A stretch of 64,000 bases of DNA from Nitrospinota bacterium (GCA_009873655.1 WAIB01000002.1:56413-120412), one strand, 5' to 3'. Positions 20,559 to 62,480 are shown, numbered from the stretch's first letter. Numbers and translations: made by a program. The notes: generated by a model from the sequence alone, not told the origin.

Positions 20559-20564
20559 AGTTCA

Positions 20565-24291: not shown

Positions 24292-24448
24292 AAAAACCTC
24301 AATAAAAAGTTCGCCAAAACTTAATTTGAAAATCAATCTTAAAGAAATTTTACCTAAAAGTTTTCCTCTCAAAATTTAACTGGTGAGAGCCAAACTCATT
24401 TGACCGTAAGAGTTCCTTTTAAATTTAGATTGTAAGTTTGAATAGAAA

Positions 24449-25135: not shown

Positions 25136-25258
25136 TAGGATTGATTTCTTTTTAATGCAAACTTTTATTTTTGGCACTAAATTAATAATTTGCCGTTTGG
25201 TTTGAAAAGTAAATAGATACATTCTGTTGAAATTTTCTTACTTTACCTGATCCCTCCT

Positions 25259-27019: not shown

Positions 27020-27023
27020 AGAG

Positions 27024-28499: not shown

Positions 28500-28578
28500 G
28501 AATTTTATTTTGTCAAACCGCTAACGTGAAGAATAAATTTTAAAAGATAATTTCAGGGTGGAAGTAAAAACGCTGGGC

Positions 28579-28851
28579 TTAAAGATATTGATTGAGTTTT
28601 ATTTTATCCTCATCACCCTGGATGGGGCTATATAGAAAACCAAAAGTCTCCAATCGCCATACAATAACGTCCAATCCTTTTAACATATTAAACCAATAGA
28701 TCATGGCCTGAAGAAAGGATTTTTTGTTTAAATCATTTTTGCAAAGAATAAAATCAATCAATTGTTTTCGTGAATGACGAATCAACGGCTGATTACCCCG
28801 GGATTTGATAATTTTATAAAGGGTGAACAGATTTTGAAACTTTTTCAGCAT
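28579..28851 (-). CDS. Hypothetical protein (90 aa), doubtful
   Basis: The only ORF in a 550-nt gap. It has no Shine-Dalgarno sequence and no recognisable motif. Confidence 0.2.
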   Translation of the reverse strand: MLKKFQNLFTLYKIIKSRGNQPLIRHSRKQLIDFILCKNDLNKKSFLQAMIYWFNMLKGLDVIVWRLETFGFLYSPIQGDEDKIKLNQYL

Positions 28852-29051
28852 TATATGTAAAGGAAAAAGATTTTTAGGGAAATCGGGGTAGAGCTTTAAC
28901 CCTCATATGGGTATTTTATATCAAGTGCCAATTTAAGTAAAGGAAGGGGTTGATCGTCCATTGATTCCATCCTATAAATTTAAAACCGCATTATGCTAGT
29001 ATCGAATCTAAAGAAAAATTTGAGAAAATTTCTATAAGAGAATTCCGTGAA

Positions 29052-36856: not shown

Positions 36857-36864
36857 TTTATTGT

Positions 36865-40554: not shown

Positions 40555-40598
40555 TACATTTTCCGGAACTTATTTAAATCCTTAAAAAGTTTTAAGAA

Positions 40599-47000: not shown

Positions 47001-47288
47001 AAGGGAGAGAAGACCCCCACTGACAAATATCAGGATTTCTATCCAGCCGTATAAATGAAGCGCCTTCGAGGAAGTATCCAGTTTATTTTCTGACAACTTG
47101 TCAACGGCGTGGCCAAAAAGGTAGCTCCCAAATCCCAAACCCGCCATGAAGGCGGAAAGGACTACCGAGACGGAAAAAACGGTGTGCCCAAAAACCAGGG
47201 TGAGCATTCGGGTCCATACGATTTCATAAATAAGGGCCGTAATGCCTGATACAAAAAATAAGAAATAAACTATGGGAGAACGTTGCAT
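44085..47288 (-). CDS. Fused polytopic membrane domain / spermidine synthase-like (PABS) / TPR protein
   Basis: About 460 aa of MFS-like TM helices, a class I methyltransferase-fold PABS core (VLVVCFGTGQTTGA...VITSEPPPP) and C-terminal TPR repeats. Confidence 0.8.
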   Translation of the reverse strand: MQRSPIVYFLFFVSGITALIYEIVWTRMLTLVFGHTVFSVSVVLSAFMAGLGFGSYLFGHAVDKLSENKLDTSSKALHLYGWIEILIFVSGGLLSLLFSNFAEVYSLFHTIIPESPPLQNLLKIVLSFVLMLIPTTFMGATLPLISKYCVTSDERIGKQVSLLYALNTLGAALGCLVTGFFLMGTFGVLQTVLMAAAGNLFIGISALNIYKEEIGGGVKFYLPKIKFPKVSLSSEQKLWVGISFICGFTALAYEVLWTRLLVFSIASTVYSFSMMLTVFLLGIFSGSILLIPVLSKVKNLRTILITLQGGVGIYVIGSIYEIESILSPPWNAYNLGNPVAAFGTYFKDSAGLMLVPTLLLGMCFPLLIQLISGKHENVGQSTGQIYAANTLGAILGSLFAGFLFLPYFGSQASLVLIATINLFTMVLLFRTGDYFGKAIRKGMTVVFVCLILFINISVPNDLLNSFFMRDSAGKRHIKKLIFFEEGLSDTVAVFKDEYGVLDPTARRLITNGISMSASNMIATRYMKLFAHVPILLVDKPDDVLVVCFGTGQTTGAAGIHPRVKTVDSLELSSSVIRSGTMFADQNHDVLTNPKVNFVIQDGRNHLLTTSKLYDVITSEPPPPRTAFTVNLYTREYYELQKKRLKPGGIAAQWIPLHSQGDKEVAMHFKTFQSVFPYTMGWLSVANEILIIGSNQPIKIDFDKLNERLQEPEIKKALTDIEIPDIFSFLSNIWLLNEQVVKLGEGFPIITDNHPAIEFYLELGDVIGIPGQERYVFNRARFDDVASQISNLSEENRQKLKTHYDAMDLYQRGVMYSNRGQLLKAMTLVEDDDLFRYHLQADRRQMHRLTQLIEEEPDNLQYILNLAHSFYQIANYEQSMEILRLVLEKNPKLSIANLYMGYNLLETGEKEKALTYFQNTAKYDPQQMATAMREIGLVSLLKEIEKNPQDPVLLRSLAEYYNLKKEYLRSLEYSLPLLQEDQMNLKILQSIVYSFRGLGEPREVLMYGGRYNLIDPDEIHLQFIMAEIFVLLNKCTKALPFLEKVIKKDDTYRNAWELKESCQKAPSD

Positions 47289-47476: not shown

Positions 47477-48307
47477 ATGGGAACTCAAGAGATAAAGATC
47501 GCCGATGCAGACCATCCTTACGCAAAGGAGATGGGCGTTGTTTGGGCTGAGGAAGCCTGGGAACGCGTGAAGCATGCACCGGAATTTGTGCGGCCGGGAA
47601 TCCGAAAACTGATGGTGCAGCGTTGTGTTAAAAGGGGATATAAGATTGTTACCTCTGATTTTTTAACAGAAATCCGCAACGAATCCATGATGCTGGTTTC
47701 CAAGCGGGTCAAAGGTTTCGGGTTTGAAGAATTGACCATGGACGCATTTGATGTCGCCAAGGAAAAAATGCGGAAAAGCCCGCGCAAGGTAGAGGTGATT
47801 GAGGAGATAGAAGATTTTCTTTCGATGCGGACGGAAAAAAAGGACGATATAGTAGACAAATTCAAAAGCTATATGGAAGTGACCCCCACGTCGGGTATTC
47901 CCTGGAGTAAAGAAGCCAAGGAAAAAATGGAAAAGGTACCTCCTTTTGTTCTTGGTATGGCCAAGCAAACCATTGAAGGAAGGGCCAGGGAAAGGGGCGA
48001 CAAAATGATCACCCCGGATATCATTGATGAGGTTTTCACAAACATAATGCCATCTTCTGCCAAGCAGGCCATGGGGATGGAGGTGACAGAAGAAGACCTG
48101 AAGCAGGACGAACAGATCGAAAAACAAAAGGAAGAGCCGGTTCAGGTTTCCATGAAATGGGAAGATGATGCGTTGGAAAAGGTATCGCGCATTCCAATTC
48201 CATTTATTCGCAACATGGCTGTAAAGCGGATTGAACAGGAAGTGGTCAAGGCAGGTGAAGAGGTGGTAACCATGGACCTGTTCGAAAAATACCGTTTTAC
48301 TTTTTAG
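47477..48307 (+). CDS. Protein with three PCP_red (protochlorophyllide reductase ChlB C-terminal-like) domains
   Basis: Three copies of the W-x-x-E-A-x-x-x-(V/M)-x-x-(I/V)-P-x-F-(V/I)-R pattern: VWAEEAWERVKHAPEFVRPGIRK, PWSKEAKEKMEKVPPFVLGMAKQ, KWEDDALEKVSRIPIPFIRNMAVK. Confidence 0.7.
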   Translation: MGTQEIKIADADHPYAKEMGVVWAEEAWERVKHAPEFVRPGIRKLMVQRCVKRGYKIVTSDFLTEIRNESMMLVSKRVKGFGFEELTMDAFDVAKEKMRKSPRKVEVIEEIEDFLSMRTEKKDDIVDKFKSYMEVTPTSGIPWSKEAKEKMEKVPPFVLGMAKQTIEGRARERGDKMITPDIIDEVFTNIMPSSAKQAMGMEVTEEDLKQDEQIEKQKEEPVQVSMKWEDDALEKVSRIPIPFIRNMAVKRIEQEVVKAGEEVVTMDLFEKYRFTF

Positions 48308-48912
48308 ACGGGCAGTTCCCCCCCTTTTCCCGAGGCCAGCTTTTGCAGCTGGCTCCAGAGTTCTTTTCTCCCCAGATGATTTTTACTTGAATAGGTCACT
48401 GCCGCAATTGCATTCTCACCCATAAAAGCCGATTTAATTATTCTGGTTTGTTTGCTACGCTCCGTTCCGGATAACTTGTCGGATTTGGTAATTACCAGGA
48501 TGTAATTCCTGCCAAGCTCTTCTAGCCATTCCTTCAGGGTCAGGTCGAGTTCGGTTGGTTTTCGCCGAATATCGACCAGAAACACAATAGCCATCAAAGG
48601 CTCGCGGTGAATGAGATATTCCTCGATCATTTTTTTCCACTGTTTTTGAAGGGCCGGGGTGACCCTTGCAAACCCATAACCGGGAAGGTCTGCGAACATC
48701 AATTTTTCATTGATTCGGAAAAAATTTATTTCCCGGGTTTTTCCAGGACTTGAACTTACGCGAACCAGTTTTTTTCGATTTAAAAGAGATCGAATCAGGG
48801 AAGATTTTCCAACATTCGACCTTCCAACAAATGCAAATTCGGGGAGAGACCCCTTGGGGTATTGTTTCGACGAAACAGCACCGGTAACAAATTCCGTGTT
48901 AATAACTTTCAT
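48304..48912 (-). CDS. engB: Ribosome-biogenesis GTPase EngB/YihA
   Basis: G1 GRSNVGKSS, G3 DLPGYG, G4 TKSD. Typical length. Confidence 0.9.
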   Translation of the reverse strand: MKVINTEFVTGAVSSKQYPKGSLPEFAFVGRSNVGKSSLIRSLLNRKKLVRVSSSPGKTREINFFRINEKLMFADLPGYGFARVTPALQKQWKKMIEEYLIHREPLMAIVFLVDIRRKPTELDLTLKEWLEELGRNYILVITKSDKLSGTERSKQTRIIKSAFMGENAIAAVTYSSKNHLGRKELWSQLQKLASGKGGELPV

Positions 48913-48932
48913 GGCCTTATATTTTAAAACAG

Positions 48933-50228
48933 CTATTTTTCAAACTTGTTAATGACAAGACCCGACAATAGTTTTGGGTAAAAGAAGGTGGCTTTTTGGG
49001 GTAAGCGAATTCCCATACCTGCTAAACGGCGCACTTCTTTTATTTTGGTAGGATTCACAAAAAACGCAATATCGTATTTCCCGGAATCCACCATTTTCAT
49101 AGCTTCTTCAGGGTTGACCTTGTAGGAAACAAATTCCTGATTTTCTTTTTTCCGGGTATCAATTTTTAAAATCTCCCTGAAAATAATGGCGTGCAGTTGC
49201 ATGACATCTAAAACCTGTAGATCTTTTGGTTCATCACTATCTAAAAGGGGAAGAATGTTTTTGGGATCATTGGCGATCAATGTATAGGTTTTTCCATTAC
49301 CCATGTAGGCGCAAAAAGTGATGCAACCTTTGCCGAATTCAATTAAGCGGGTTTTAATTTCAGCTCCATTTACCTCTGTAGTCCAGGGAATGACATCGAA
49401 ATATTCGCTAAGGCGTTTTAGAAAAAATTCCTTGTCCAGGGGGACCGGGCTTTTTACAACCCTGTGGATCGGGAAAATGGACATGGAGCCCGAGTCCATA
49501 TTGGTTAAAAACATCATGACATGAGAACTGTCCGCTACCGTGTCCTCATTTTTTTTGGCAAAAGCCAGGGCCGTTTCATATCGATGGTGTCCGTCGGCAA
49601 TGTATATTTTTTTGTCGCGGATCAGTTCGCTGATTTTTTGATTTTTTTCAGCGTTATCCATTCGCCAGAGCTTGTGCAGCACAAGGCCATCGTCAATGGT
49701 ATGCAGGGGTTTTTTCTTTATAACTTCATTCAGGATAGAGTCGATTTCCTCCTCCGGATCGGAATATAAACCGAAGATAGGGCTGAAATTGGCATGGCAT
49801 GCATTTAGAAGCCGGGTTCGATCTGTTTTTGCTTTTGATAGGGTGAATTCATGGGGGCAGATATTTCCCTCGCTAAAGTCCTGCACTCCAACACGCGCGA
49901 AAAAGCCAATTCGGCAGAACTTATCGCCTTCAAACTCATATTCCTGGCTGTAAAGATAAAATCCGGTTTTTTCATCTTTCTTTAAAATTCCCTGGTCTGT
50001 CCAATCCTTAAAAACTTTCGCTGACCGGGTGTAGCGGTTATCGTTTTCCGAATCACTTTCGTATTCTTTTCCAAGTATCAACCGAACGACGTTGTAGGGA
50101 TTTTTCTCGTACAGGGCTTCTTGTTGGGCTGGAGATATTACATCATAAGGAGGCGCCGTTACTCCTTCGAGAGGGCCGGTAATGTCGAGATTGTATAAAA
50201 GGCCGTGAAAAGGAATAACTTCAATCAT
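48933..50228 (-). CDS. DUF1015 family protein
   Basis: The family-typical N-terminus (IPFHGLLYN...APPYDVIS) and ADGHHRYETA motif. Confidence 0.8.
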   Translation of the reverse strand: MIEVIPFHGLLYNLDITGPLEGVTAPPYDVISPAQQEALYEKNPYNVVRLILGKEYESDSENDNRYTRSAKVFKDWTDQGILKKDEKTGFYLYSQEYEFEGDKFCRIGFFARVGVQDFSEGNICPHEFTLSKAKTDRTRLLNACHANFSPIFGLYSDPEEEIDSILNEVIKKKPLHTIDDGLVLHKLWRMDNAEKNQKISELIRDKKIYIADGHHRYETALAFAKKNEDTVADSSHVMMFLTNMDSGSMSIFPIHRVVKSPVPLDKEFFLKRLSEYFDVIPWTTEVNGAEIKTRLIEFGKGCITFCAYMGNGKTYTLIANDPKNILPLLDSDEPKDLQVLDVMQLHAIIFREILKIDTRKKENQEFVSYKVNPEEAMKMVDSGKYDIAFFVNPTKIKEVRRLAGMGIRLPQKATFFYPKLLSGLVINKFEK

Positions 50229-50299
50229 GTTTGCTCGCTAACAGAATGTTTTAAACGGAAAATATTATAGCAAAAATGAACAGGCTTTATGGAAACGGG

Positions 50300-50779
50300 T
50301 TATAGAGCTTCACACTGGCACAATTCGCGAATATAGCGAACCAGTTCATGAATGGTCGAATCGCTCAAGGTGTTACCCCATGCGGGCATGCAGGGTGCCC
50401 TTCCCACCGATAGCCCTCCAAACTTAATGGCTTGAAAAAGCTGTTCATCCGTTCGGGTTTCCAGGTATTCGGCTTTGGTGTGATTCCGCGGGGGCACGGT
50501 CAGGAACTTTGCATTGATGCCATCGCCTTTACCTTTAATTCCATGGCATTGGGCACAATACCATTGGTAGGTCTCCCGTGTCTTTGCTGTCACTATTACT
50601 GGGGATACCTCTTCCTTTAAGGAAAGGGGTGGCGGCGACTCTGTTTTGAGCGGGGGAGGTGGAGGTTTTTCAGCCTGTTTTTCACCGCACCCGGATACCC
50701 CGATTGCGGTGATCAGGATTGCGTATTTAAAAACAGACAAGAGAGAAATTTTAGACATCAGCTTATCGAATGCCCTCAT
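50300..50779 (-). CDS. Monohaem class I cytochrome c, probable lipoprotein with a poly-Pro tether
   Basis: Lipobox VSGC, linker KPPPPPLKTESPPPLS, CAQCH, distal Met region PCMPAWG. An alternative start at 50758 (MSKISLL...) sits 13-14 nt after GAGGG. Confidence 0.8.
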   Translation of the reverse strand: MRAFDKLMSKISLLSVFKYAILITAIGVSGCGEKQAEKPPPPPLKTESPPPLSLKEEVSPVIVTAKTRETYQWYCAQCHGIKGKGDGINAKFLTVPPRNHTKAEYLETRTDEQLFQAIKFGGLSVGRAPCMPAWGNTLSDSTIHELVRYIRELCQCEAL

Positions 50780-51416
50780 TTTTTAGCGTCATAATGAACC
50801 GTGTGAACCGCAAACGTGTTTCATCATCCATTTTATAAACCGGCATCCGGCTTTTTTCGGAAAAGGTTTTCGGATTTTTAAGCCAGACCGCTACCCAATT
50901 CGCCTGCAACCGGTTTCCAGCATCGACCAGGGAGGGGCCTGAAATTCCGCCACGGGGTTTGCCTGCCAGGTTTAAGCTTTGATGGCAGGAAATGCAACTG
51001 AAGGTGCGTTCGAACTCATATTTGGTTTTTGCTTTTTGACCTTTGTTTAATGGATCGGGGAGTTCTTCTACCGGCAGATCCGGCAGTGTCATTTGCATTA
51101 ATTCCTGAGTGATCTTTCCCGCGTCTTCTTTGGAAAGTGAGGGATGATTGTTTTCGCGTTCCCCTTTCAGGAATCCGGGATTATGGATGGTACCCGCTTT
51201 TCGAAGGGTGACCGGGTTTTGAAGATATTTTTCCAACCAGGGGCTTTTAAATTTGTTGCCCGCATAAAACAGATCGGGTCCCTTTTTTTCATTTTCCTTT
51301 TTTGTTAAGCGGTGGCACGAGGCACATTTTTTTTCTTCGATTAAAGAAGCGTGGGAAAGCATGGGCGGGTAGAGAAACCATCCGCAAATTAAAATAAGAT
51401 ATAATTTTTTCATCAC
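50763..51416 (-). CDS. Dihaem cytochrome c
   Basis: Signal peptide, CASCH and CISCH. The start overlaps the stop of the upstream gene (ATGA). Confidence 0.85.
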   Translation of the reverse strand: MMKKLYLILICGWFLYPPMLSHASLIEEKKCASCHRLTKKENEKKGPDLFYAGNKFKSPWLEKYLQNPVTLRKAGTIHNPGFLKGERENNHPSLSKEDAGKITQELMQMTLPDLPVEELPDPLNKGQKAKTKYEFERTFSCISCHQSLNLAGKPRGGISGPSLVDAGNRLQANWVAVWLKNPKTFSEKSRMPVYKMDDETRLRFTRFIMTLKNEGIR

Positions 51417-54145
51417 GGGGCAGGTTCCTCGGGAACGGTAGAAGGTTCCGGAATTTTTTCCGTTTCCTGGAAAATGTCATAGAGAAACTCAATGATTCCC
51501 TCTTCTTTATTTTCCGGCGGTGGCTCTGCTGCCAAGTTGTTATCTTCTTCCGTCCTGATTTCCGGGGTTGGCTCAGGTGAAAAAACTTGTGGTGGCTCGG
51601 TTTTTGGTTGTTCCTTTTTTACAAACCGGTTTTTTTCTACATCATAAAAAAGGTCGTCGCGAGCCTGCGGTTTTCCTGAATTTAATTCGCGTACCCGATG
51701 CCTTGCGTCGTAAGGAAATTCACTGCGGCCTAGAAGCCTTGAAAAATTCAATTCCCGCAAATTTAAAGAGCGAAATGCCCGATAACGTTCCGTTTGTTCT
51801 TGAAGGGCGGTTATCTCTTCGATGTTGAGGAAACGCGATTCCCCCCTGGGAAAGGGAGTTTGTAATTCCCGCCCCTGGGAATCCATGCCCTGTTTGAGCT
51901 GGAAATCGGGATGTACCCTGGAATTTTGTTTCAATTCCGAGAAAAATAAATCGGCGTTCTGGATTGATTTTCGTAAAGGGTCACCGAGCCCGACGGATAA
52001 AGGGTTTTGATGACAGTCTTCACAGGAGCGCACGGTTTTTCGTATCGTATGAGGTGAATAATCTGTCCAGATCAATCCTGCGGATTCGTCCCGTGTTAAA
52101 GGTGTTTCTGCCCTTTTAAGGGGAACACCGGATGTTCCCGTCTGGTCGGTTATAAAATACTGGTAGCGAGGTTTAAGTATGGAATATTTCCCGCGTGAGT
52201 TTTTACCCATTATCAGTTCCGACCATCCTGATTCAGAAAAAACCGTCCACCAATATTCATTTATAGGTGTGCCCTCAATTTTTTTGGGAAGGGATTTTGC
52301 GGTTAACCAATCCAGCATGCCCTGATTTTCACCGGAGGTGTCAGCACGCAATGGTTCCGACAGGTTCCAGTTTTTCCATTTTTCAGGGGCGAAGCTTTTT
52401 TCCCTTATAACATGCATACCCCAGTCCGTCGCTGTCCATCGGGCATGACAGGCAGAGCATTCTATCTCTTTCATATGTTTTGGAATCTGGTGCGCGATGG
52501 AAGGCTTGAGGTTTTTTAGTAAGGGAATGATGTGCTTCTTTCCTGTCACTTTTGAATACAATGCCCAGTCATTTTTTATCTTTTTAATATGCAACATCGC
52601 TGAGCCGCTTGAATTGACCAGAACCGTGTCTCCTGCCTTGACTTTTTTCTTGAGATTGGGATTGAGGTTGTTGTGTGCCAACATTTTTTTAGTGTTCGGG
52701 TCTGACTCAATCAAAAGATATTCTTCGGGAAGGGTCCCATGGGTACCATGGCAATCCGTGCATCGGATCTGGGTTCCTGATTGAAGGTTTTCAGGTTCTG
52801 CATCCGGTTTCATTTCATCCCCAATATGACAGTCGATGCAATGCATCCCTTTTTCCCTATGGATGTCCGGAACTAGAAACTCGTGCTCTTTGCCATAGAG
52901 CACGGGTTTTTCCGAGTTTATTTGGGAATGTGTTTCCATAGGCCGTGATGGTTTTGCAAAAAGACCTTCGAATTCCTGTCCTACCCCGTTATTGTTATGG
53001 CAATGCTCGCATTGAACGCTGGGGACGGCGACGGTAAATTTATGAAGTAGGGGATAGCCACGCGGGTTGTCCAAAGAGTTTTCGGCGAATTTTCTGGAAA
53101 AGCGATCTTTTTTTCCCAGTTTCTTTTGTACTTTCTGAATGGCTCTATCGTGGGACAGGGAAATACCGTCGTTCGAGTAAATCATATGACAGGAAGAACA
53201 ACCGGAGGAGCGGTAGTCCCCCGGGCGATGTGGACTTTCAGACCCGATATGACATCGCAGGCATTTGGTTCGGAGAAATCCATCCACAGCATGGCCTTCC
53301 TTTGCCCCAGGCAAGGTTTGCTCGTCATCGTCTGGCTTTAAAGAGAAAGGAAGTTCATCATGAGGTTGGGCTCCCCAACCGTACCGGGTGATGTTGATGG
53401 TTCTTTTCGCGGTGGACATGAGGGAGCGTTCCACCTTCCTGACATGGTTTTCGTGGCATTTTCCACAAAACCGGGGAGCGTTTTTTGCGGAAGAGGGGTT
53501 GGCGACAAGTCCATTATGGGCTTTGGGTAAGGAATTGGACCGCCTGTTTCCCCCATGGCAGCGAACACATGAAAACCGATGGTTATTACTGATCCGTTCG
53601 ATTCCCTGATGGCAGGTATAACAGCCTCCCCGCCTTTCCAGGTATTCGATTTTTCCATAAACGTCCTTTAGGGAAAAATTGGATTCCTTGTAGAATTTTT
53701 CTATAAACTTGCTGGTATCTCCATAGGATTGAAACTGAACGCCATCCAAAGTAGTTCCGGGTTGCAGAACTTTTTCCGAATTTTCCTGGAACCCCCTGAC
53801 CCGGTAAAAAGGATCTTCGAAATCAGAAGCGTCAATTTGGACCTTGGGAAGGGAGGCGGGAATTTCCACCATTTCTTTTTTTTGCAGGTTTTTCTGGGGG
53901 TCCTGCGCGATTTCTGATTCTTCAATATCAGTTGTTTCTGGTTTGGACTCAGGTTTTAGAAAGAAGTCCAGTATTCCCGGCGATTCTTTTTCGGTTGAGT
54001 TTGAAATGGACTCATTTCCATTTTGCGAATCAAAAAAATCGGTAAACTCTCTTTCAGCAGGCACCTGACCTGAAGATTGGGTAAGGAAAGCGCCCAGACA
54101 CAATACTCCGGTAAGAATCAGCGATAGAATTATTCGTTTGTTCAC
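51413..54145 (-). CDS. Multihaem cytochrome c, 10 CxxCH motifs (910 aa)
   Basis: Signal peptide. CYTCH, CVRCH, CGKCH, CLRCH, CSSCH, CEHCH, CIDCH, CTDCH, CSACH, CEDCH. Acidic/Pro-rich N- and C-terminal segments. The start overlaps the stop of the upstream gene. Confidence 0.9.
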   Translation of the reverse strand: MNKRIILSLILTGVLCLGAFLTQSSGQVPAEREFTDFFDSQNGNESISNSTEKESPGILDFFLKPESKPETTDIEESEIAQDPQKNLQKKEMVEIPASLPKVQIDASDFEDPFYRVRGFQENSEKVLQPGTTLDGVQFQSYGDTSKFIEKFYKESNFSLKDVYGKIEYLERRGGCYTCHQGIERISNNHRFSCVRCHGGNRRSNSLPKAHNGLVANPSSAKNAPRFCGKCHENHVRKVERSLMSTAKRTINITRYGWGAQPHDELPFSLKPDDDEQTLPGAKEGHAVDGFLRTKCLRCHIGSESPHRPGDYRSSGCSSCHMIYSNDGISLSHDRAIQKVQKKLGKKDRFSRKFAENSLDNPRGYPLLHKFTVAVPSVQCEHCHNNNGVGQEFEGLFAKPSRPMETHSQINSEKPVLYGKEHEFLVPDIHREKGMHCIDCHIGDEMKPDAEPENLQSGTQIRCTDCHGTHGTLPEEYLLIESDPNTKKMLAHNNLNPNLKKKVKAGDTVLVNSSGSAMLHIKKIKNDWALYSKVTGKKHIIPLLKNLKPSIAHQIPKHMKEIECSACHARWTATDWGMHVIREKSFAPEKWKNWNLSEPLRADTSGENQGMLDWLTAKSLPKKIEGTPINEYWWTVFSESGWSELIMGKNSRGKYSILKPRYQYFITDQTGTSGVPLKRAETPLTRDESAGLIWTDYSPHTIRKTVRSCEDCHQNPLSVGLGDPLRKSIQNADLFFSELKQNSRVHPDFQLKQGMDSQGRELQTPFPRGESRFLNIEEITALQEQTERYRAFRSLNLRELNFSRLLGRSEFPYDARHRVRELNSGKPQARDDLFYDVEKNRFVKKEQPKTEPPQVFSPEPTPEIRTEEDNNLAAEPPPENKEEGIIEFLYDIFQETEKIPEPSTVPEEPAP

Positions 54146-56532
54146 GGTTGAGTAAGCCTTGAGTTTAAAATTTGTTTGCGCAGTTGCCGGTGCTCAAGCG
54201 TCCTTTCAAAAGCGTAGCTTTTATTAATATCCTTGTATATAGGATCGCCATACTGGTCGTGACAGGGAATGCAATTTCCAACCCTCAATATTCTTGTGAT
54301 TTCTTTTTGATTGAAGGGCCTTGCATTTACCTGGTGACTCCCGGCAAGAATTTCCCCTCGCATTGAGACTTTTGCTTGAGGATCAAAAGCAGATGCCTGG
54401 ACCTGTTTGTCTGAGCGATTTAAAGGAATGAGCAAATCATTTTTTCCGCTATTGTTTGCCCCGATTTTCAAGTCGCCTTTCCCTAATCCTAAAGTTTCGG
54501 GAGATAAATGGCAACTCTCGCAGGAACGAACCTGGGTTCCTGTTGAATGAGGGTTCAGTGAATAGGCCAAATTGGATCCCGATGAGCCATGCGGATTCGT
54601 AAACTGCCATTTTTTATATTTTCCCCGGTACTTACCCTCCGAACCCAGGGCAGGGACAGGATTGCCCTTCTCGTCAAGAAGCGAAAAATGTCTTTCAGGT
54701 TGCTCGAGCATAGGGGTGACTTTTCCCCGGGGTCCTATCATGAGCGCGGGTTGCTGGATTTTTATGGGGATCTTTTCTTCAAGATTTAATTCAACCTGTC
54801 CTATTTTCATGGTTGTATGGCAACCCTCGCATTTTACAACCCATTGGGAATGGCAGGCAGTGCACTCTAAACGGGATCGGTGCTGTGGGATAAAATGTGC
54901 CTGTTTGTCTCGGACAAGAGGAATATCATAAACCCGGCCACTCTTCTTTCCGACCACGACCATTTTCCCATCTTGCACTTTTACATTGGACAATCGTCTT
55001 TTTCTCTCGGAAACAGCCATCCAGTCTCCAACGGAATTGGGTGTGCCCTGATAATGTTTGCTGAGTCTGATAACCGCATCTTTGGAATCGGTTACCTTTG
55101 ATATCATCGGGTAGGAGTTGTCATCTCCGTGACAGGTTTCGCAACGAATTTCCACAGCTTGATGCTGTTTGGAATACAAATTTCCATCTCCCATGATATC
55201 CCTTTGCGTATGGCAGTCGATACAATCCATTCCGCGAGCGGTATGAATATCAATCCGGGCATTCCCCTTGCCGGCAAAAAGAGACAGCTCTTTTGCTCCA
55301 GCTGAAATTTTTTCTTCTTTTTCTGGTTTGTTGGCAACCGGTTCTTTCCGGGTTGGAGGATCCGGCTTAAATTCTTCATTCACTTGTTTCTGATCCCCTT
55401 CTATCTGGTTCGATACCATTTTTTCAGCAGGCGTCTCCGAGGGAAACTTTTCTGTTTCGAGGGGCGGGCTATTTTCTAATTCAGGTTCTTCTTCTCCATC
55501 ACCTGGAGTAGAAAAAATTTCTTTAACGGGCGAGGGCTCATTTCCTAAAGGTTGAATAGAGAAACCTTGATGACATTGCACACACATTTCCCGTTTTGGC
55601 AAGGCTTCAATTTTATGCCGTTTTGCATGTCCCGGCTGCGTTTTGGAAATAGTCGGATCGTCGCCTTCATAGAGACCCGTTTTCGAATAAGTAAAATGAC
55701 AGGCAGCGCAACCCTGAGACCGGTATTGGCCGGGAGGTGGGGGAGAGTCTATATGGCATTGAAAACATTTCTGGCGTAAAAGACGATCACTGGGATGTTT
55801 GGAAACCGGCTGAAGAGAATTTTTTTCTGATTCAGGGATATCCAGGATTGAAAAATAGGGCAGCTTTTCTAATTTATTCAAGGCTCCCCATTCATGAGGA
55901 ACCTTTCCATCCTGGTCGGAAATTTCCTTTGTCGCATAGCGTGCGGTCTTTTTATTCTGTCCAGCCCATTGATAGCGTAAGCCGGATATCATTCCGGCAA
56001 GGGTGTTCATCATGGACTTGTTGGACCGCTGAATATGGTTTCGGTCTTCACTAGCGTGGCCGGCATGGCAATAAAGTTGCCCGCAGGACTGCTCCACCAC
56101 ACTGAGACTCGATGGGTTCCGTTTTCCCGTTCCCGCCTTGGGATCAAAAATCAAAGTTGCATGGGCCTGGTCTTTGTTGATCGATTCGGGTTCGCCGCCA
56201 TGACACACGGTACAGCCAAATTCCAGCGGGTGGGATTCACTGGTTGGGGAAATCCCATCGTGGCAGGTTATACAGCGCTCGGAGGAACGGTTTCTATAGC
56301 CCGATACCTCCACCCAGGGGTAATCCGGCAAGGTTGCGGTGACCTGCACCTGCTTGACATGAGGCTCCCTGGTTCTCCAAAAATGAGCCTCTTCAGGGTT
56401 GGATGCCTTATCTATGTTTTCTTGAAAAAATTTTTGCTGCCAGAATATCCAGTCTTTTTCCTGAGCGTAAACAGAGCAGACCCCCATCAGGAATATCAAT
56501 AAAACCGTCAGCCCCTTTTTTAAAGTGAACAC
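54142..56532 (-). CDS. Multihaem cytochrome c, 11 CxxCH plus 1 CxxxxCH motifs (796 aa)
   Basis: Signal peptide (…CSVYA/QE). CITCH, CTVCH, CGQLYCH, CFQCH, CAACH, CVQCH, CIDCH, CETCH, CTACH, CEGCH, CESCH, CIPCH. The motif order parallels the 910-aa protein. Confidence 0.9.
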   Translation of the reverse strand: MFTLKKGLTVLLIFLMGVCSVYAQEKDWIFWQQKFFQENIDKASNPEEAHFWRTREPHVKQVQVTATLPDYPWVEVSGYRNRSSERCITCHDGISPTSESHPLEFGCTVCHGGEPESINKDQAHATLIFDPKAGTGKRNPSSLSVVEQSCGQLYCHAGHASEDRNHIQRSNKSMMNTLAGMISGLRYQWAGQNKKTARYATKEISDQDGKVPHEWGALNKLEKLPYFSILDIPESEKNSLQPVSKHPSDRLLRQKCFQCHIDSPPPPGQYRSQGCAACHFTYSKTGLYEGDDPTISKTQPGHAKRHKIEALPKREMCVQCHQGFSIQPLGNEPSPVKEIFSTPGDGEEEPELENSPPLETEKFPSETPAEKMVSNQIEGDQKQVNEEFKPDPPTRKEPVANKPEKEEKISAGAKELSLFAGKGNARIDIHTARGMDCIDCHTQRDIMGDGNLYSKQHQAVEIRCETCHGDDNSYPMISKVTDSKDAVIRLSKHYQGTPNSVGDWMAVSERKRRLSNVKVQDGKMVVVGKKSGRVYDIPLVRDKQAHFIPQHRSRLECTACHSQWVVKCEGCHTTMKIGQVELNLEEKIPIKIQQPALMIGPRGKVTPMLEQPERHFSLLDEKGNPVPALGSEGKYRGKYKKWQFTNPHGSSGSNLAYSLNPHSTGTQVRSCESCHLSPETLGLGKGDLKIGANNSGKNDLLIPLNRSDKQVQASAFDPQAKVSMRGEILAGSHQVNARPFNQKEITRILRVGNCIPCHDQYGDPIYKDINKSYAFERTLEHRQLRKQILNSRLTQP

Positions 56533-56583
56533 AGTAGGGAAGTGAGCGAGAAGTTAAGAAATCAACCGAACCGTACAAACGAA

Positions 56584-56892
56584 TCAGGTGGGTGAATCGT
56601 ATACAACAGAAACGTTCTTAAGATAACTTTTTAATTCATCAAGATGGTTTAGAATTTTATCCGGGGCTTTTTCCTTTGCTGCGAGCTCAATGGCAGCCCC
56701 AATCACACTAATTTCCATGAACCCATAACCGCCCCCCGAGCCTTTCATGGAATGGCCCAGGGTGCAAATTTTTTTTAAATCGGAATCTTTGAGTGCTGCG
56801 TCAATGGCTTTTATATCTTTTCGGCGGTTTTTTAAGTAGCCCGGGATTAACTCGCGTAAGTCAGGATCGACATGTGCGATAATTTTTTTCAC
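56584..56892 (-). CDS. Stand-alone histidine phosphotransfer (Hpt) domain protein
   Basis: HSMKGSGGGYGF matches the Hpt HxxKG(s/a)xxxxG motif inside a predicted four-helix-bundle-sized protein (102 aa). Confidence 0.7.
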   Translation of the reverse strand: MKKIIAHVDPDLRELIPGYLKNRRKDIKAIDAALKDSDLKKICTLGHSMKGSGGGYGFMEISVIGAAIELAAKEKAPDKILNHLDELKSYLKNVSVVYDSPT

Positions 56893-56991
56893 GGAGATTT
56901 TCCAAACAGTTTCAGCTGTTAACCGGATCTAAAATATTCCGCCCTTCTTGATATTTTTTCCTTTTACTTCAATTCAAGGTCAGCCAGGGAA

Positions 56992-57495
56992 TCAATAAAG
57001 AGGGTTATGAAAATAATACAGGGCATCATCCGCCGGGCCGATACTGTAATCGGGCAGACTGGAACAATGTTCAAGAGTTATTTTCCAACCGGAGCCTTCC
57101 TTAACGAAATTGTAATTGCAGACGTTGTGTTGCCGTTCGTCCGCGTGGCTGGATTTGGATGTGATGCTTATGATTTCATCCACCAATACATAACCCACTT
57201 TGTTCCCCGCATGGCCCGAGAGAACCTGGCGCTGTACTTCACATTTCACATCACGGAAATCAGACATCATTTGACGGTAGTCCCTCACCCTGTTTTCCAG
57301 CAGGGCACGCTTATCGTCCGCCATGATCACCAGGCCTTTACCATAGAAAGCGGGAAGTTTTTCAGGCGCCGTGCAAGCCAGTTTGTCCAGTTTGTTTAAG
57401 ATATTGGCATACACATCGGTTCCGGCAGCCAAGGCATTATTGCTTATTACCAGGGACAAAACCAATGCCATCCCGGTGATTATGAAACGCTTCAT
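56992..57495 (-). CDS. Secreted hypothetical protein, possibly NTF2/SnoaL-like fold
   Basis: The signal peptide starts at the internal Met (MKRFIITGMALVLSLVISNNALA), whereas the ORF track extends to 57546. The size and alpha+beta pattern suggest an NTF2-like fold, which is an inference only. Confidence 0.45.
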   Translation of the reverse strand: MKRFIITGMALVLSLVISNNALAAGTDVYANILNKLDKLACTAPEKLPAFYGKGLVIMADDKRALLENRVRDYRQMMSDFRDVKCEVQRQVLSGHAGNKVGYVLVDEIISITSKSSHADERQHNVCNYNFVKEGSGWKITLEHCSSLPDYSIGPADDALYYFHNPLY

Positions 57496-57570
57496 TTTAA
57501 AGTTTCTCCAGAAAAAAATTAAAAATGTCAAAATGTTCCAATTCAAACCGCCCAGGAAACGCAGAATGAA

Positions 57571-59745
57571 TCAGGGAAAATTGTGTAAATAAATCTCTAC
57601 TGTTTCACCGTCTTGAGCCCAACCGAAATTTCCGGTTCCCGCAAAAGTGGAAATGGTTCCTTTAGCGTCTACCTTTCTGATTCGGTTGTTCCCCATGTCA
57701 GTAATATACATATTGTTTTTCGAATCGAATGCAATTGCGAGAGGGCTTTTCAGCATGGCGCTTGTTGCAGCCCCGCCATCTCCAGAATACCCTTGATAAC
57801 CATTACCAGCCACGCGAACCATTTTCCCGTCTTTGGTGATTTTTCTAATGGTGTTTGCATTCATTCCCACAATATGAAGCTCTCCCTGGGGGCTTACTTT
57901 CAGGTAGTCCATATGTCGAATGCTTGCCTTCAGTGCAGGGCCTCCGTCACCGGCGTTAACATGTTTGCCATTGCCCGCGATGGTGGTTACGGTTCCGTTG
58001 GTATCAATTTTTCGAATCATGTTATTGGCACCATCGGCGATGTACAGATTCCCCTGTTTATCTGTGGCCAATGCGCTCGGATCTCGAAAGGCGGCTTCGC
58101 TGGCCGGTCCCCCATCTCCGTAATAACCCGATTCACCTGTTCCCGCGATGGTGGCGATGTTTCCCTTGGCGTCTACCTTGCGGATCTGGTGATTGAGCCT
58201 GTCCGAAATGAACATATTGCCTTTATGGTCAAAAGCGAAATCGGAAAAGGTCGTGATGGTAGCCAGTTCACCGGTTTGCACCTTTCCCTTGTATTTGCTG
58301 TTGGCGATTGATTCCAGGTATAGGGGGGTCACCGTATCCAGAAATTTTCGCATGATGCCCTTTTCATCGATTTTTCGAATCAGGCTCACGAAACCGCTTG
58401 GACTTACAATGAAAATTTCCCCTTTATTGTTCAGTTTCAACGAGGTGGCACCATAGATAGAGGCTTCCTTGGCCGGCAACCCATCTCCAATATTTCCACG
58501 GATTCCGTTTCCTGCGAAGGTATGAATTTCGCCAGTCGGAGAAATTTTACGAATACGATAATTCCCCTTATCAGAAAAAATCACATTGTCATTTTTATCC
58601 ACTGCAATGCCGTGGGGAAAACTTAAAGTAGCGCCGGTGGCCGGACCGCCGTCACCCGCAAACATTTTCTTTCCATTTCCCGCGATGGTTTTTACACTGC
58701 CTCGTTTTAAGTTGATACTGCGAATCCGGTAATGCGAGCGGTCAATTACCAGAAGATTGCCATTGGGGTTCAGGGTCACGCCAAAGGGAAGGTGGAGATT
58801 CGTCTCCCGTGCGACTTCTGAATCTCCGTTGTAGTCCTGTTTACCTGTTCCCACGACGGTGGTGATCATACCTTGTGAGTCCACCGCGCGTACGCGATTG
58901 TTGCTTCGGTCTGCAATGTACAAGATGCCCTGGTCATCGACCGCCACGCCCGTTGGACCGGCAACGCTGGCACGATAGGCAGGGCCGTTATCGCCACTAA
59001 AGAAGAAGCCCCCATCACCGGCTACCGTGGTTATGGTTCCACGTGAATTTACCCTTCGCACCCGATTGTTGCGCCGGTCTGCGATATATAAATTTCCTTT
59101 TCTATCGAAGGCAATGCCAAAGGGTTTATCGAGGGAGGCTTGCACAGCGGGGCCCGAATCTCCTCTAAAGCCCTCCCTGCCGTTTCCTGCATAAGTATGG
59201 ATATTGCCATTGGAATCGATCATTCGAATGCGGTCATTGGATCGATCTGAGAAATACAAATTTCCCTTTTTATCGAACGCAATTCCCGAAGGGTGATTCA
59301 ATTGCGCGCTGGTGGCAGGCCCGCCATCGCCATTAAAACCGGCAGTGCCTGTTCCTGCAACCGTGCTTATATTTCCACGGGAATCTACTTTACGAATGCG
59401 ATGGTTATTACGGTCAGCGATATACAGGTTTCCCCTCTTGTCTAAGGCCAGCCCGGCTGGCACATTCAATCGGGCTTCGGTGGCCTTTCCACCGTCGCCA
59501 CTGTAACCGGCAGAACCATTGCCTGCATAAGCAGTCATATTGCCTTTAAGATCAATGCGGCTGACAACATTATTATCGCGCCTGGCAATATAAACATTGC
59601 CGTTTTTATCCACCGCAATTCCATCTACCAGGGAGATCTCGGTCTTGGTAGCTGTACCGATTTTTGCCAAAACCTCAGTATCCGGGAAAACATATCCCAG
59701 AAAAAAAGAAAAGACAGTCAACACAAGAAAATATTTTTTGAACAT
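57571..59745 (-). CDS. Secreted NHL-repeat protein (about 12 blades, two beta-propellers)
   Basis: Roughly 56-aa units (YAGNGxxGYSGDGGPATxAxLxxPxGIAxDxxGNLYIADxxNxRIRKVDxxGxIxT) repeated about 12 times. The ATG at 59745 is preceded by GAGG and begins a signal peptide (MFKKYFLVLTVFSFFLG). The ORF track's TTG start is at 59781. Confidence 0.9.
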   Translation of the reverse strand: MFKKYFLVLTVFSFFLGYVFPDTEVLAKIGTATKTEISLVDGIAVDKNGNVYIARRDNNVVSRIDLKGNMTAYAGNGSAGYSGDGGKATEARLNVPAGLALDKRGNLYIADRNNHRIRKVDSRGNISTVAGTGTAGFNGDGGPATSAQLNHPSGIAFDKKGNLYFSDRSNDRIRMIDSNGNIHTYAGNGREGFRGDSGPAVQASLDKPFGIAFDRKGNLYIADRRNNRVRRVNSRGTITTVAGDGGFFFSGDNGPAYRASVAGPTGVAVDDQGILYIADRSNNRVRAVDSQGMITTVVGTGKQDYNGDSEVARETNLHLPFGVTLNPNGNLLVIDRSHYRIRSINLKRGSVKTIAGNGKKMFAGDGGPATGATLSFPHGIAVDKNDNVIFSDKGNYRIRKISPTGEIHTFAGNGIRGNIGDGLPAKEASIYGATSLKLNNKGEIFIVSPSGFVSLIRKIDEKGIMRKFLDTVTPLYLESIANSKYKGKVQTGELATITTFSDFAFDHKGNMFISDRLNHQIRKVDAKGNIATIAGTGESGYYGDGGPASEAAFRDPSALATDKQGNLYIADGANNMIRKIDTNGTVTTIAGNGKHVNAGDGGPALKASIRHMDYLKVSPQGELHIVGMNANTIRKITKDGKMVRVAGNGYQGYSGDGGAATSAMLKSPLAIAFDSKNNMYITDMGNNRIRKVDAKGTISTFAGTGNFGWAQDGETVEIYLHNFP
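57600..59560 (-). repeat. Coding tandem repeat array (NHL blades, about 168-nt period, diverged)
   Basis: Periodic recurrence of GNLYIADR.NNRIRKVD and GDGGPA codons across the gene. This also generates the long spurious antisense ORFs. Confidence 0.8.
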
Positions 59746-60282
59746 TTTAAAAACCTCATTTTGGGCCATAAATTTCGACAAATGATCCTTAAAATCTTAT
59801 CTTTATTACACAAAATAAAATTTGTCGGGGATTGATCGAATTACCCGGAAAGAAAAGCTTTAGATGTCGAATAAGAAGATAATTATACGTTGCCCATATT
59901 CGTTGTCAAATGATTTCAAAAACAATTAGGTTCGAAAAGTCAAGCATCCTAAAGCCCAATCCCAATCGCCAATCCCCTCAATATCGTGCTCCTTCCTTTT
60001 TCCGGTTTTTAAGCGTTTGAGCGAGGTTTCACAATTCAGGGAAATACAAAATGGCAAGAAACAATTGTTGCAGGCTTGAATAGGGGAGTTTGTGGGAGTA
60101 TCCGGCAGGCCCCAAAAGGAAACAATGGGATTTGGGAAAATCGATTAAATTTATTAAAAAAACCCTTCAAAATGGTGTAAACTATTTATATTCAAAGACA
60201 AATAGATTTTCTGGACCAGGTTGGTTAGCCAATAGTGTATTTATTTAGGATCTAAATAAGCTGAATAAGGGGCCATTTTATT

Positions 60283-61284
60283 ATGCGTATTTCTATTTTT
60301 CTGGTTTTTATTTCGATTCAGGCGGTCGGTTTTTTTTCGGACATTAAATTTGCTTTTGGCAATGACCTCCAGGTTTCTTTGGAGAATGAGGTTGCGGGAA
60401 TAACGCCCGGGATGACGCTGCTTCCGAAAGCCACCGGAAACATCAACCAACCGGCTTCCCAAACAACGGGTCCTGAGAAAACGGGCACCCACCCTAAAGA
60501 TGAACCCAAGTTCAACATTCCCGATGACATTTATCAAAGAGCGGGTTTTATTTCCAATAAAATTACCCCGGTGGGCAAGGTAGCCAAAATTTTTGACAAT
60601 AAACTGGGAACCAGTGGACCCGAAAAAGTTTTCATTAATCTGGGCAGAAGGCAGGGATTGGAGTTGGGGGATAAGTTTATCGCATACAGCCAGGAAAAAT
60701 TTATAAATCATCCCGTTCTGGATAAAAGGAGAAATTTTTTGGATATCCTGTACCGAGAAAGAAAGCCGGGTTTCGGAACAGAAAAATTTTGGATGCCCCA
60801 GGGTAAGCCTATGGGCTATCGAACAGATATCAGGGGGGTGTTGGAGGTGATTGAGGTGGGGGAAACCAGTTCCGCGGCACTCATAATTAAAGCATATGAA
60901 GATATCAAGCCCGATGAATTTCTTATGCCCTATCGGGAAATGATAGAGCCCTCGGTCAATGGACAAGATAAATCGATCGATGGCTATGTGGTTGCTACCC
61001 AACAGGACAGAATCATTGTGGGACTCACCGACGTCGTCTACATCGATAAAGGTTGGGTGGACGGTGTTTCAGCTGGCCAGATTTTCGAGGTCTATCATAT
61101 CCCGGAAAAGGTTGTAAAACCCTGGTACCAGGTGAGATCTTTTGGTTTAAAGAGAACCCCAATGCTTCCGGATGTGCTGGGGGAAATCAAGATATTGAAC
61201 ACCCAGAGACATACCGCCACGGCGGTCATCGTACAAAGCCACCTGGATATGCAAGTGGGGCATAAGATAAGAATCAAGCGCTAA
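60283..61284 (+). CDS. Secreted hypothetical protein with duplicated beta-rich module
   Basis: Signal peptide [18 protein letters not shown]. Repeated G-x-h-x-V-h-x-h...h-x-x-G-D/H-x-h motifs. Preferred over the 253-aa antisense ORF, which has junk-like composition. Confidence 0.6.
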
Positions 61285-62480
61285 CCGGCTTCGATTTTCA
61301 GGTATCTTTTTTTGCCCACTTTAATCATGAACTCCTGATTACCCGGGAACTCCTGGTTCACGTCCGATATTTTTTCCCCATTTACTGAAACGGAGCCCTG
61401 CTGAATCAACCTTCTGGCGGCCGATGTGCTATCGGTCAGCTTGTTTTCTTTGAGAATATTGCAGATATTGCGTTTTTCTGAGCCCCATCCTGTGATGACA
61501 GGAATGTCCTCCGGCAGATTTTTTTTCTTGAAAACATTTTCAAATTCACTCGAAGCGGCTTCTGCAAGCTCTGGAGTATGATAGAGAGTAACCAACTCTT
61601 TGGCCAATTGCATTTTGGCGTTTTTGGGATTCAATGCCCCGGACTTTGCCTTCTCTTGCATGGAACGGAGTTCATCTGTAGATACCTGGCTTAGAAGCTC
61701 ATAATACCGCCACATCAAATCATCGGAAATCGACATGACTTTTCCAAACATTTCATTTGGGGAATCGAAGACACCAATACTGTTGCCAAGGCTTTTGCTC
61801 ATTTTTTGTACGCCATCTGTTCCTTCCAGCAATGGCATGGTAAGAACAATTTGCGGCTTTTGTCCGTAAGCACGTTGTAAATCCCGGCCCACCAACAGGT
61901 TGAATTTCTGGTCGGTGCCGCCCAACTCCACATCTGATTTCAGTGCAACGGAATCGTAACCCTGTATCAGGGGATACATGAGCTCATGAATAGATACGGG
62001 CAGATTTTTTGCCAGTCGTTTTTGGAAATCATCTCTTTCCAGCATGCGCGCAACGGTATAATGCGCGGCTAATTCTATCATGTTGACGGAGGTGAACTTT
62101 CCCATCCATTCGCTGTTATAGGCGACGATGGTTTTTTCACTGTCCAGAATTTTGAAAACCTGTTCCAGATAGGTTTTCGCGTTATTTTTGACTTCCTCTG
62201 AAGTGAGATTTTTTCTTGTTTCAGAACGCCCTGTCGGGTCTCCGATCATTCCTGTAAAATCTCCTATGAGGAAAATAACTTCGTGGCCCAGGTCCTGAAA
62301 CTGTTTCATTTTATTCAAGAGCACGGTGTGTCCCAGGTGAAGATCGGGTGCCGTGGGGTCAAACCCGGCCTTGATTTTCAATGGCACGCCCTTTTCAAGC
62401 AATTGAGCCAGATCTTTTTCGTCAATAATCTCAGAGGTTCCCCGTCGAAGGGTTTTCAATTGTTCTTTTGCTGATAACAT
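61281..62480 (-). CDS. tyrS: Tyrosine--tRNA ligase (type 2, with C-terminal S4 domain)
   Basis: HIGH (HLGH), [20 protein letters not shown], and a C-terminal S4-like [18 protein letters not shown]. Confidence 0.95.

Follow-up and report, generated by a model that had tools for sequence, protein, structure and literature searches.

The closest described counterpart of the cytochromes treated here is the ext cluster of Geobacter sulfurreducens, extHIJKLMNOPQS (PMC5877670), in which ExtM (GSU2935, 12 haems) and ExtN (GSU2934, 10 haems) adjoin the Rieske protein ExtO and the cytochrome b ExtP, an arrangement present in all six Geobacter genomes compared (PMC2825233, PMC5877670). GSU2930-2937 has been described as a conserved 'bc complex' cluster (PMC2825233), ExtM was found in the outer-membrane fraction as well as in other fractions (PMC5877670), and ExtKL has been reported as the periplasmic polysulfide reductase MccSep, with an 'unidentified' electron donor (bioRxiv 10.1101/2025.11.18.688581). 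We have analysed a cluster of four genes for c-type cytochromes, with 12, 10, 2 and 1 haem-binding sites, on a 64-kb stretch of DNA (hereafter the window) from an uncultured marine Nitrospinaceae (GCA_009873655.1, WAIB01000002.1:56413-120412). The cluster appears to be a phylum-specific, rearranged variant of the Rieske/cytochrome b-associated ExtM/ExtN multihaem module, and not something categorically new.

In the ocean, nitrite is oxidised mainly by Nitrospinota, and the routing of electrons between nitrite oxidoreductase (NXR), oxidase and quinone, including reverse transport, rests on genome inference. The genome of Nitrospina gracilis has a Rieske/b6/subunit IV operon, in which the sole adjacent cytochrome is an 'atypical octaheme', and also a second cytochrome b; clusters such as the one described here go unmentioned in that paper (PMC3578206). 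Multihaem clusters in metagenome-assembled genomes (MAGs) of Nitrospinaceae have been mentioned in passing, with the words 'up to 12 heme-binding sites ... role remains unclear' (PMC11995701).

The cytochrome genes and their products

The minus strand of the window carries seven co-oriented open reading frames (ORFs) between 50300 and 59781, as proposed in an earlier reading made from the DNA alone (the sequence-only reading), whose gene coordinates and haem counts were confirmed. Four of the ORFs encode the cytochromes:

54142-56532, minus strand: 12-haem cytochrome c, 796 aa, 11 CxxCH and one CxxxxCH
51413-54145, minus strand: 10-haem cytochrome c, 910 aa, 10 CxxCH
50763-51416, minus strand: dihaem cytochrome c, 217 aa, 2 CxxCH
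50300-50779, minus strand: monohaem cytochrome c, 159 aa, 1 CxxCH

The total of 25 haem sites is far beyond chance, because the window has about 45 other ORFs that are 80 aa or longer, and they do not contain a single CxxCH. The CxxxxCH site of the 12-haem protein is C150-GQLY-C155-H156 (CGQLYCH). All four proteins have N-termini that resemble signal peptides (Sec export), and their genes are tightly spaced and translationally coupled. Three overlapping junctions had been proposed, and two of them are real, with GTGA start/stop overlaps at 54142-54145 (12-haem/10-haem) and 51413-51416 (10-haem/dihaem). The third, at 50763-50779, is probably an artefact of longest-ORF calling, because the monohaem orthologues, with a length of 151-155 aa, start 4 nt past the dihaem stop, which corresponds to Met8 here (50758).

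Family scans across the window found no other cytochrome and no quinol dehydrogenase, NrfD/bc subunit or porin, no tetrahaem ORF or match to the NapC/NrfH/CymA family, no rhodanese match and no Rieske or cytochrome b gene. The sequence-only reading was thus right that a membrane partner, a porin and a NapC/NrfH-type dehydrogenase are absent from the window. It was also right that the layout is neither a porin-cytochrome system of the Mtr/Pcc kind nor a NapC/NrfH-type reductase system, the scores of these families being negligible or absent (16.2 bits for TIGR03508, the DmsE family, where the cut-off is 192, and 15.9 bits for the MtrC/MtrF domain, where it is 30).

The two giant proteins are paralogues, as had been suspected. 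BLASTP aligns residues 87-684 of the 796-aa protein with residues 175-721 of the 910-aa protein at 25% identity (E = 2e-33), and ten of the haem sites correspond to each other one by one along the alignment. The extra sites of the 12-haem protein are those at C568 and C754, and at the position of its CxxxxCH the 10-haem protein carries a plain CxxCH. The two are ancient paralogues and not the products of a recent duplication.

That the cluster matches nothing known could not be upheld. The NCBIfam model for ExtM (NF040943) gives 296.4 bits for the 796-aa protein and 169.3 bits for the 910-aa protein, and the ordered pair, a 12-haem gene followed by an adjacent, co-oriented 10-haem paralogue as in ExtM/ExtN, is conserved across phyla. 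The model is an equivalog with a curated cut-off of 800 bits, which neither giant reaches; the members of the distant Desulfobacterota pairs are below it too (185-407 bits). The ExtN model gives 66.7 bits for the 10-haem protein against a cut-off of 200. The neighbourhood also differs from that in Geobacter, and ExtM and ExtN are themselves biochemically uncharacterised. The cluster is rightly called uncharacterised.

The family of the 12-haem protein comprises 1061 clusters (50% identity) at E <= 1e-3 and 126 at E <= 1e-30. The protein has two conserved cores, residues 61-330 and 421-796, joined by a variable acidic linker (331-420), and the 10-haem protein has one, residues 91-840, between variable Glu/Pro-rich tails (25-90 and 841-910). 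Neither giant gave a significant match in the PDB when used as a single sequence. A family profile built from 20 sequences matched NrfA (E = 3e-8) and MccA (E = 1e-4). The part of NrfA to which haems 5-8 of the 12-haem protein correspond is that of the electron-transfer haems 2-5 and not that of the CxxCK catalytic haem, and the CxxCK motif is absent from both giants. Outside the motifs, 12 His of the 12-haem protein, as many as it has haems, are invariant within Nitrospinota (alignment A4), with 9 His and 3 Met kept across 38 more divergent orthologues, and the 10-haem protein has 12 conserved His and 3 conserved Met for its 10 haems. Every haem could be six-coordinate, and a relay would fit better than an enzyme, because the ligand candidates suffice for all haems, CxxCK is absent and only haems 2-5 of NrfA align.

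The two smaller proteins are class I (His/Met) cytochromes c. The dihaem protein matches Pfam Cytochrom_C (38.5 bits, cut-off 21.3), FixO (33.1 bits) and, under the cut-off of that model, NCBIfam SoxX (41 bits); its C-terminal half is FixO/SoxX-like, and Met191 is at least 95% conserved. The monohaem protein has a CcoP-like domain (Pfam Cytochrome_CBB3, 42.8 bits, cut-off 27). Its haem domain is 80-91% conserved, and Met131, in the position of the sixth ligand, is conserved to at least 95% in 30 orthologues. The sequence-only reading had missed that this protein is a predicted lipoprotein, which would provide a membrane tether. It has the lipobox VSGC at residues 28-31 and, after it, a Pro-rich linker. 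In the same 30 orthologues the conservation of Cys31 is at least 95%, and a regular expression detects the lipobox in most of them. Three further Cys are conserved to at least 95%, C130 beside the Met ligand and C154 and C156 in a C-terminal CxC, and a disulfide or an extra metal site is conceivable.

Relatives outside Nitrospinota

The locus scan used one genome per species and gave 79 loci, which were annotated by phmmer with the window proteins and are referred to by L numbers. In several other phyla the relatives of the giants are encoded next to Rieske and cytochrome b genes, in these layouts:

Desulfobulbia (L035, L039, L040, L044, L051, L057): Rieske, cytochrome b6, subunit IV, octahaem, monohaem, 12-haem, 10-haem, monohaem, c554-like, cupredoxin
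Desulfarculaceae MAG (L049) and delta-proteobacterial MAG (L048): 12-haem, 10-haem, Rieske, cytochrome b
Bacillota (L065, L067, L081): 7-haem ExtM-like gene immediately after Rieske and cytochrome b
Nitrospirota (L059): 7-haem ExtM-like gene immediately after cytochrome b
Bacteroidota (L075): ExtM-like gene immediately after Rieske and cytochrome b

The Desulfobulbia layout is complete in L039, L040, L044 and L051; L035 is inverted and truncated, and L057 ends after the c554-like gene. The octahaem protein of these operons is SoxX/FixO/ExtS-like, its family includes 'Candidatus Methylomirabilis', and the counterpart of the 10-haem protein has 9 CxxCH. In 11 of 13 distant loci, reciprocal scores sort the two genes by a factor of about two, the first gene fitting the 12-haem protein better and the second the 10-haem protein. 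The duplication as well as the gene order therefore predate the phyla.

The smaller cytochromes have a link of their own to such operons. Two loci with members of the octahaem family, which we assigned to Desulfobacterota from 70-89% identity in cytochrome b (L082 and L083), have operons consisting of Rieske, cytochrome b, subunit IV, octahaem, dihaem, monohaem and cytochrome c peroxidase genes, and their dihaem and monohaem proteins, which are in the same gene order as in the window, show 31-36% and 40-45% identity to those described here. Because the giants and the dihaem/monohaem genes each adjoin such genes in other phyla, both halves of the Nitrospinota cluster are tied to Rieske/cytochrome b, and they are, independently of each other, accessories of Rieske/cytochrome b operons elsewhere. 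The earlier statement that the cluster has no recognisable membrane partner does not hold in this wider sense, as the class of partner can be seen by comparison.

Nine loci from Planctomycetota (L058, L060, L061, L063, L070, L071, L073, L078 and L079, among them one Brocadiia MAG) and the unclassified L076 have a single 10-haem relative of the 12-haem protein, 960-1280 aa long and without a paralogue. No homologues of Rieske or cytochrome b were detected in those ten loci.

Conservation within Nitrospinota

The best 120 homologues of the 12-haem protein have 59-100% identity to it, and the few with a source name are hypothetical proteins of Nitrospinota or marine metagenomes. The order 12-haem, 10-haem, dihaem, monohaem is kept in 39 of 39 Nitrospinota loci, wherever the contig is long enough. 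This synteny persists down to 41-46% identity and includes the RefSeq isolate Nitrospina sp. 32_T5 (L036). The cluster also occurs in open-ocean planktonic MAGs (ALOHA, Tara). In most Nitrospinota loci DUF1015 and YsxC genes come after the cytochromes; we dropped these two as members of the system, as they are of a cytoplasmic housekeeping type and conserved as synteny only.

Two loci have unusual neighbours. A groundwater Nitrospinae MAG (L019:7681-9464) has a gene for a SorA-like molybdopterin oxidoreductase and one for a small monohaem cytochrome directly upstream of the Hpt and cytochrome genes, in the position that NHL and SnoaL-like genes have in other lineages. A Nitrospinaceae MAG (L047:15999-18227, minus strand) has, convergent and right after the monohaem gene, a gene for a 742-aa protein with about 10 transmembrane segments, one CxxCH and no Pfam match.

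The upstream genes

The three remaining ORFs and a promoter lie upstream of the cytochrome genes:

59882-59909, minus strand: sigma-70 consensus promoter TTGACA-N16-TATAAT, 12 of 12 positions, upstream of the NHL gene
57571-59781, minus strand: predicted secreted NHL beta-propeller with two six-bladed halves, likely start Met13 at 59745
56992-57546, minus strand: small secreted SnoaL/NTF2-like protein, 184-aa ORF, likely start Met18 at 57495, which gives 167 aa
56584-56892, minus strand: stand-alone Hpt protein, Pfam Hpt (PF01627) 29.4 bits, cut-off 24.6

These are the 12-blade propeller, the small secreted protein and the Hpt protein of the sequence-only reading; Pfam and a reading of the repeats confirmed the propeller, and Pfam the Hpt domain. 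The NHL protein (Pfam TEN_NHL 269.5 bits, NHL 164.6 bits) has an N-terminus like a signal peptide and about 12 repeats of roughly 56 aa, of which eleven were found by script and the twelfth (about residue 645) by eye. The SnoaL-like protein has four conserved Cys and a weak match to Pfam SnoaL_3 (20.1 bits, cut-off 22), PF13474 being precomputed on many of its orthologues. Its conservation exceeds that of the cytochromes: among its 548 homologues the best 120 have 70-94% identity, all source names given for them are Nitrospinota, and no relative from outside the phylum is among them. An AlphaFold2 model of it (26 sequences) was unusable, with pLDDT 38.1; the AlphaFold2 alignments in this study comprised only homologues of at least 60-70% identity. 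The gene is always paired with NHL in the loci compared.

The same perfect promoter precedes NHL in 21 of 22 Nitrospinota loci from the range L001-L047. When the leaders of 12 loci are aligned, only the two hexamers and the G that precedes the -10 box never vary, the surrounding leader diverging freely, and an Rfam scan of 48000-62000 gave zero real matches. A conserved perfect promoter would imply very strong and conserved expression of the NHL and SnoaL-like genes, which on this ground can be regarded as one strongly promoted unit. As Hpt is in none of the loci scanned preceded by a promoter with 10 or more of the 12 consensus positions, read-through from the NHL promoter into the Hpt and cytochrome genes is possible in this window.

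The cytochromes have an NHL orthologue upstream in 25 Nitrospinota loci, whereas L019, L021 and L046, which represent three lineages, have none there, and the NHL/SnoaL-like unit is absent from every non-Nitrospinota locus compared. In eight loci (L018, L023, L024, L032, L033, L036, L043 and L047) it is separated from Hpt and the cytochromes by 2-9 kb of unrelated genes, encoding GlgX/TreY/TreZ-like amylases or an SMC-like ATPase. Having its own promoter, interposed genes in eight loci and a non-adjacent position in three lineages, the unit is separable from the cytochromes; we regard it as separate and lineage-specific, with an unproven functional tie to them. The same observations leave the suggested role of the propeller, as a substrate-binding, mineral-binding or scaffold part, with no specific support. 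The genes between the SnoaL-like gene and Hpt are for glycogen/trehalose-type enzymes (CBM48 plus alpha-amylase; GlgX/TreY/TreZ-like) in L024, L033, L036 and L047.

The Hpt protein carries GHSMKGSGGGYG, that is, H-x-x-K-G with the phospho-acceptor His, and the absence of a signal peptide points to the cytoplasm. Its gene is more closely attached to the cytochromes than the NHL unit is, and in most Nitrospinota, including L019, L021 and L046, it immediately precedes the 12-haem gene. It has decayed to C-terminal fragments in L003, L004, L006, L009, L010 and L011, and nothing is left of it in L047; the loci with a fragmented Hpt include the closest listed relatives (68-75% identity). Because only fragments or nothing remain in these seven loci, Hpt is evidently dispensable, and presumably a cytoplasmic regulatory neighbour. 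At 39457-43751 (minus strand) there is a 1050-aa hybrid histidine kinase (40599-43751; dCache, two PAS, HisKA, HATPase and receiver domains) with an adjoining receiver/HD-GYP response regulator. The kinase has no Hpt domain of its own and is about 13 kb from the stand-alone Hpt, and a phosphorelay partnership is plausible; it is not conserved near the cluster in the other loci compared.

Other features of the window

47477-48307, plus strand: 276-aa protein of a non-phototroph with three PCP_red domains, otherwise known from the C-terminus of the protochlorophyllide reductase 57-kDa subunit
44085-47288, minus strand: 1067-aa fusion protein with about 13 transmembrane segments, a spermidine-synthase-like domain and C-terminal TPR repeats
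34154-38124, minus strand: SbcC/SbcD-like pair, a 900-aa AAA_27/SMC_N ATPase and a 419-aa metallophosphoesterase
about 20000-30000: GC content 0.37-0.39 against 0.42-0.48 elsewhere, three PMT_2-type (ArnT-like) membrane glycosyltransferases; we suspect a variable island for cell-surface glycosylation
6956-8143, minus strand: CrtC-like (hydroxyneurosporene synthase) double-lipocalin protein, in a nitrite oxidiser

Discussion

We hypothesize that the four cytochromes are a periplasmic relay, tethered by the lipoprotein, which serves a Rieske/cytochrome b complex encoded elsewhere, and we give this a probability of about 0.5. The 12-haem, 10-haem, dihaem and lipoprotein monohaem proteins would be the functional core, a periplasmic chain of haems that the monohaem protein holds to a membrane, and this chain would relay electrons between a quinol:cytochrome c oxidoreductase of the Rieske/cytochrome b type and high-potential His/Met cytochromes or periplasmic enzymes. 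A physical association with such a complex in Nitrospinota is presumed by analogy with the other phyla. As for the donor, the acceptor and the direction of electron flow, we infer that the high-potential end in a nitrite oxidiser would be at the level of NXR and the cbb3 oxidase. The electrons could go forward, from quinol to the oxidase, for instance when storage carbon is respired, or in reverse, when electrons derived from nitrite are pushed toward quinone.

Several points weigh against this hypothesis. Multihaem proteins with bis-His ligation usually have low potentials, which makes them an awkward fit to the high-potential chain of a nitrite oxidiser. No Rieske or cytochrome b gene was found within 10 kb of the cluster in any of the 39 Nitrospinota loci, so the partner is deduced from other phyla and from one published genome. 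Conservation of the gene order throughout the phylum is by itself weak evidence of function, because DUF1015 and YsxC stay syntenic as well. An AlphaFold2 model of the 12-haem protein, made from an alignment of 37 sequences, was unusable (pLDDT 31.7, pTM 0.18). Finally, the periplasmic ExtM and ExtN, on which the comparison leans, are biochemically uncharacterised (PMC2825233, PMC5877670).

The chain could instead work independently of Rieske/cytochrome b, passing electrons from NXR or a sulfite dehydrogenase directly to the cbb3 oxidase, or storing them as a buffer while oxygen fluctuates. The small cytochromes do resemble the FixO and CcoP domains of cbb3 oxidases, 25 haems are a large electron capacity, the Nitrospinota cluster is without linked bc genes, and L019 has its SorA-like molybdoenzyme and monohaem cytochrome directly upstream of the Hpt and multihaem genes. 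The adjacency of SorA is however seen in a single locus, mono- and dihaem carriers would suffice for a plain link between NXR and the oxidase, and both halves of the module are linked to Rieske/cytochrome b in at least four other phyla. We consider this explanation unlikely, although it is the alternative that fares best.

The sequence-only reading had suggested a periplasm-spanning or extracellular conduit in which the NHL protein is a binding or scaffold part; the substrates of such a conduit would be insoluble or metals. Extracellular electron transport has been raised as a possibility for multihaem clusters of Nitrospinaceae (PMC11995701), and the occurrence of ExtM in, among others, the outer-membrane fraction of Geobacter (PMC5877670) would agree with it, as would the long, variable Glu/Pro-rich tails of the 10-haem protein, the upstream position of NHL in 25 loci and the NHL proteins beside outer-surface cytochromes in Desulfovibrio ferrophilus and in the Uet cluster of Tenderia. 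On the other hand, no porin or outer-membrane component is encoded in the window or in the loci examined, where L030 has one TonB receptor only, and the similarity to the MtrA/DmsE family is negligible (16 bits against 192). The relatives are linked to Rieske/cytochrome b complexes of the inner membrane, the NHL and SnoaL-like genes are separable and missing upstream in three lineages, and the cluster is carried by open-ocean planktonic MAGs, where solid substrates are scarce. With no specific support for it, an extracellular conduit seems distinctly unlikely.

It is also improbable that the 25-haem module is a lineage-specific periplasmic supercomplex, possibly scaffolded by a highly expressed NHL propeller and the SnoaL-like protein, that either brings electrons from NXR to the Rieske/cytochrome b6-octahaem complex for uphill, reverse transport or connects pelagic nitrite oxidisers to a second, hitherto unrecognised donor or acceptor, including an extracellular one. 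That one of the giants is an enzyme of the NrfA/MccA/OTR superfamily for a small nitrogen or sulfur compound is very improbable, since the profile matches to NrfA and MccA cover only electron-transfer haems of NrfA, there is neither CxxCK nor an evident vacant ligand position, and the CxxxxCH site, unusual as it is in the family, is a plain CxxCH in the paralogue and occurs also in ordinary bis-His cytochromes c3.

The four-cytochrome core, which all 39 Nitrospinota loci retrieved possess, is a concrete and testable candidate for a part of the electron route of the main nitrite oxidisers of the ocean. In general terms, cytochromes of the ExtM/ExtN type could be read as periplasmic extensions of Rieske/cytochrome b complexes. 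Such a reading bears on the electron donor of MccSep in Geobacter, and it fits a role in bridging the Rieske/cytochrome b core and periplasmic redox enzymes. It would also mean that modules of this kind can become genetically detached from their membrane core.

Comparison with known systems

In the comparison with NrfA and MccA, for which structures have been solved, the likeness is confined to a four-haem core, haems 5-8 of the 12-haem protein against haems 2-5 of NrfA; the CxxCK catalytic haem is absent here, the architecture differs and the catalytic residues do not align. The MtrCAB, PioAB/MtoAB and Pcc conduits likewise consist of several multihaem cytochromes, and differ in that the window has neither a porin nor a cytochrome of the extracellular type. 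The D. ferrophilus genes DFE_0448-0465 and the Tenderia Uet cluster have NHL propeller genes near those for outer-surface cytochromes; the cluster in the window lacks a porin.

The likeness to the ext cluster of Geobacter is closer. It lies in the pair of a 12-haem and then a 10-haem gene in the same order, in the match of both giants to the ExtM model, in the predicted periplasmic location and in the presence of a lipoprotein cytochrome, which in Geobacter is ExtS. Unlike the ext cluster (GSU2930-2940), the window has no Rieske protein ExtO, cytochrome b ExtP or ExtQ, nor the pentahaem polysulfide reductase ExtKL/MccSep, the porin ExtI or the rhodanese ExtH. The Nitrospinota proteins are larger, with disordered linkers, and the cluster adds dihaem and monohaem class I cytochromes, its neighbours being the Hpt, SnoaL-like and NHL genes. 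A further difference lies in the host, which is an aerobic nitrite oxidiser. The layout in Desulfarculaceae is that of ExtM-ExtN-ExtO-ExtP in Geobacter.

The operons with Rieske, cytochrome b6, subunit IV and octahaem genes in N. gracilis, 'Candidatus Kuenenia' and 'Candidatus Methylomirabilis' (PMC3578206) are the likely class of membrane partner; they are outside the window, and we infer the association in Nitrospinota. The operon of the Desulfobulbia (Desulfocapsa/Desulfobulbus) differs from the cluster in that it is linked to Rieske/cytochrome b, has another gene order, contains the dihaem part within the octahaem fusion and lacks NHL, SnoaL-like and Hpt genes. It is nevertheless the nearest outgroup of both giants (32-34% identity, 450-480 bits), and it shares with the Nitrospinota cluster the monohaem homologues and the FixO/SoxX-like cytochrome domain.

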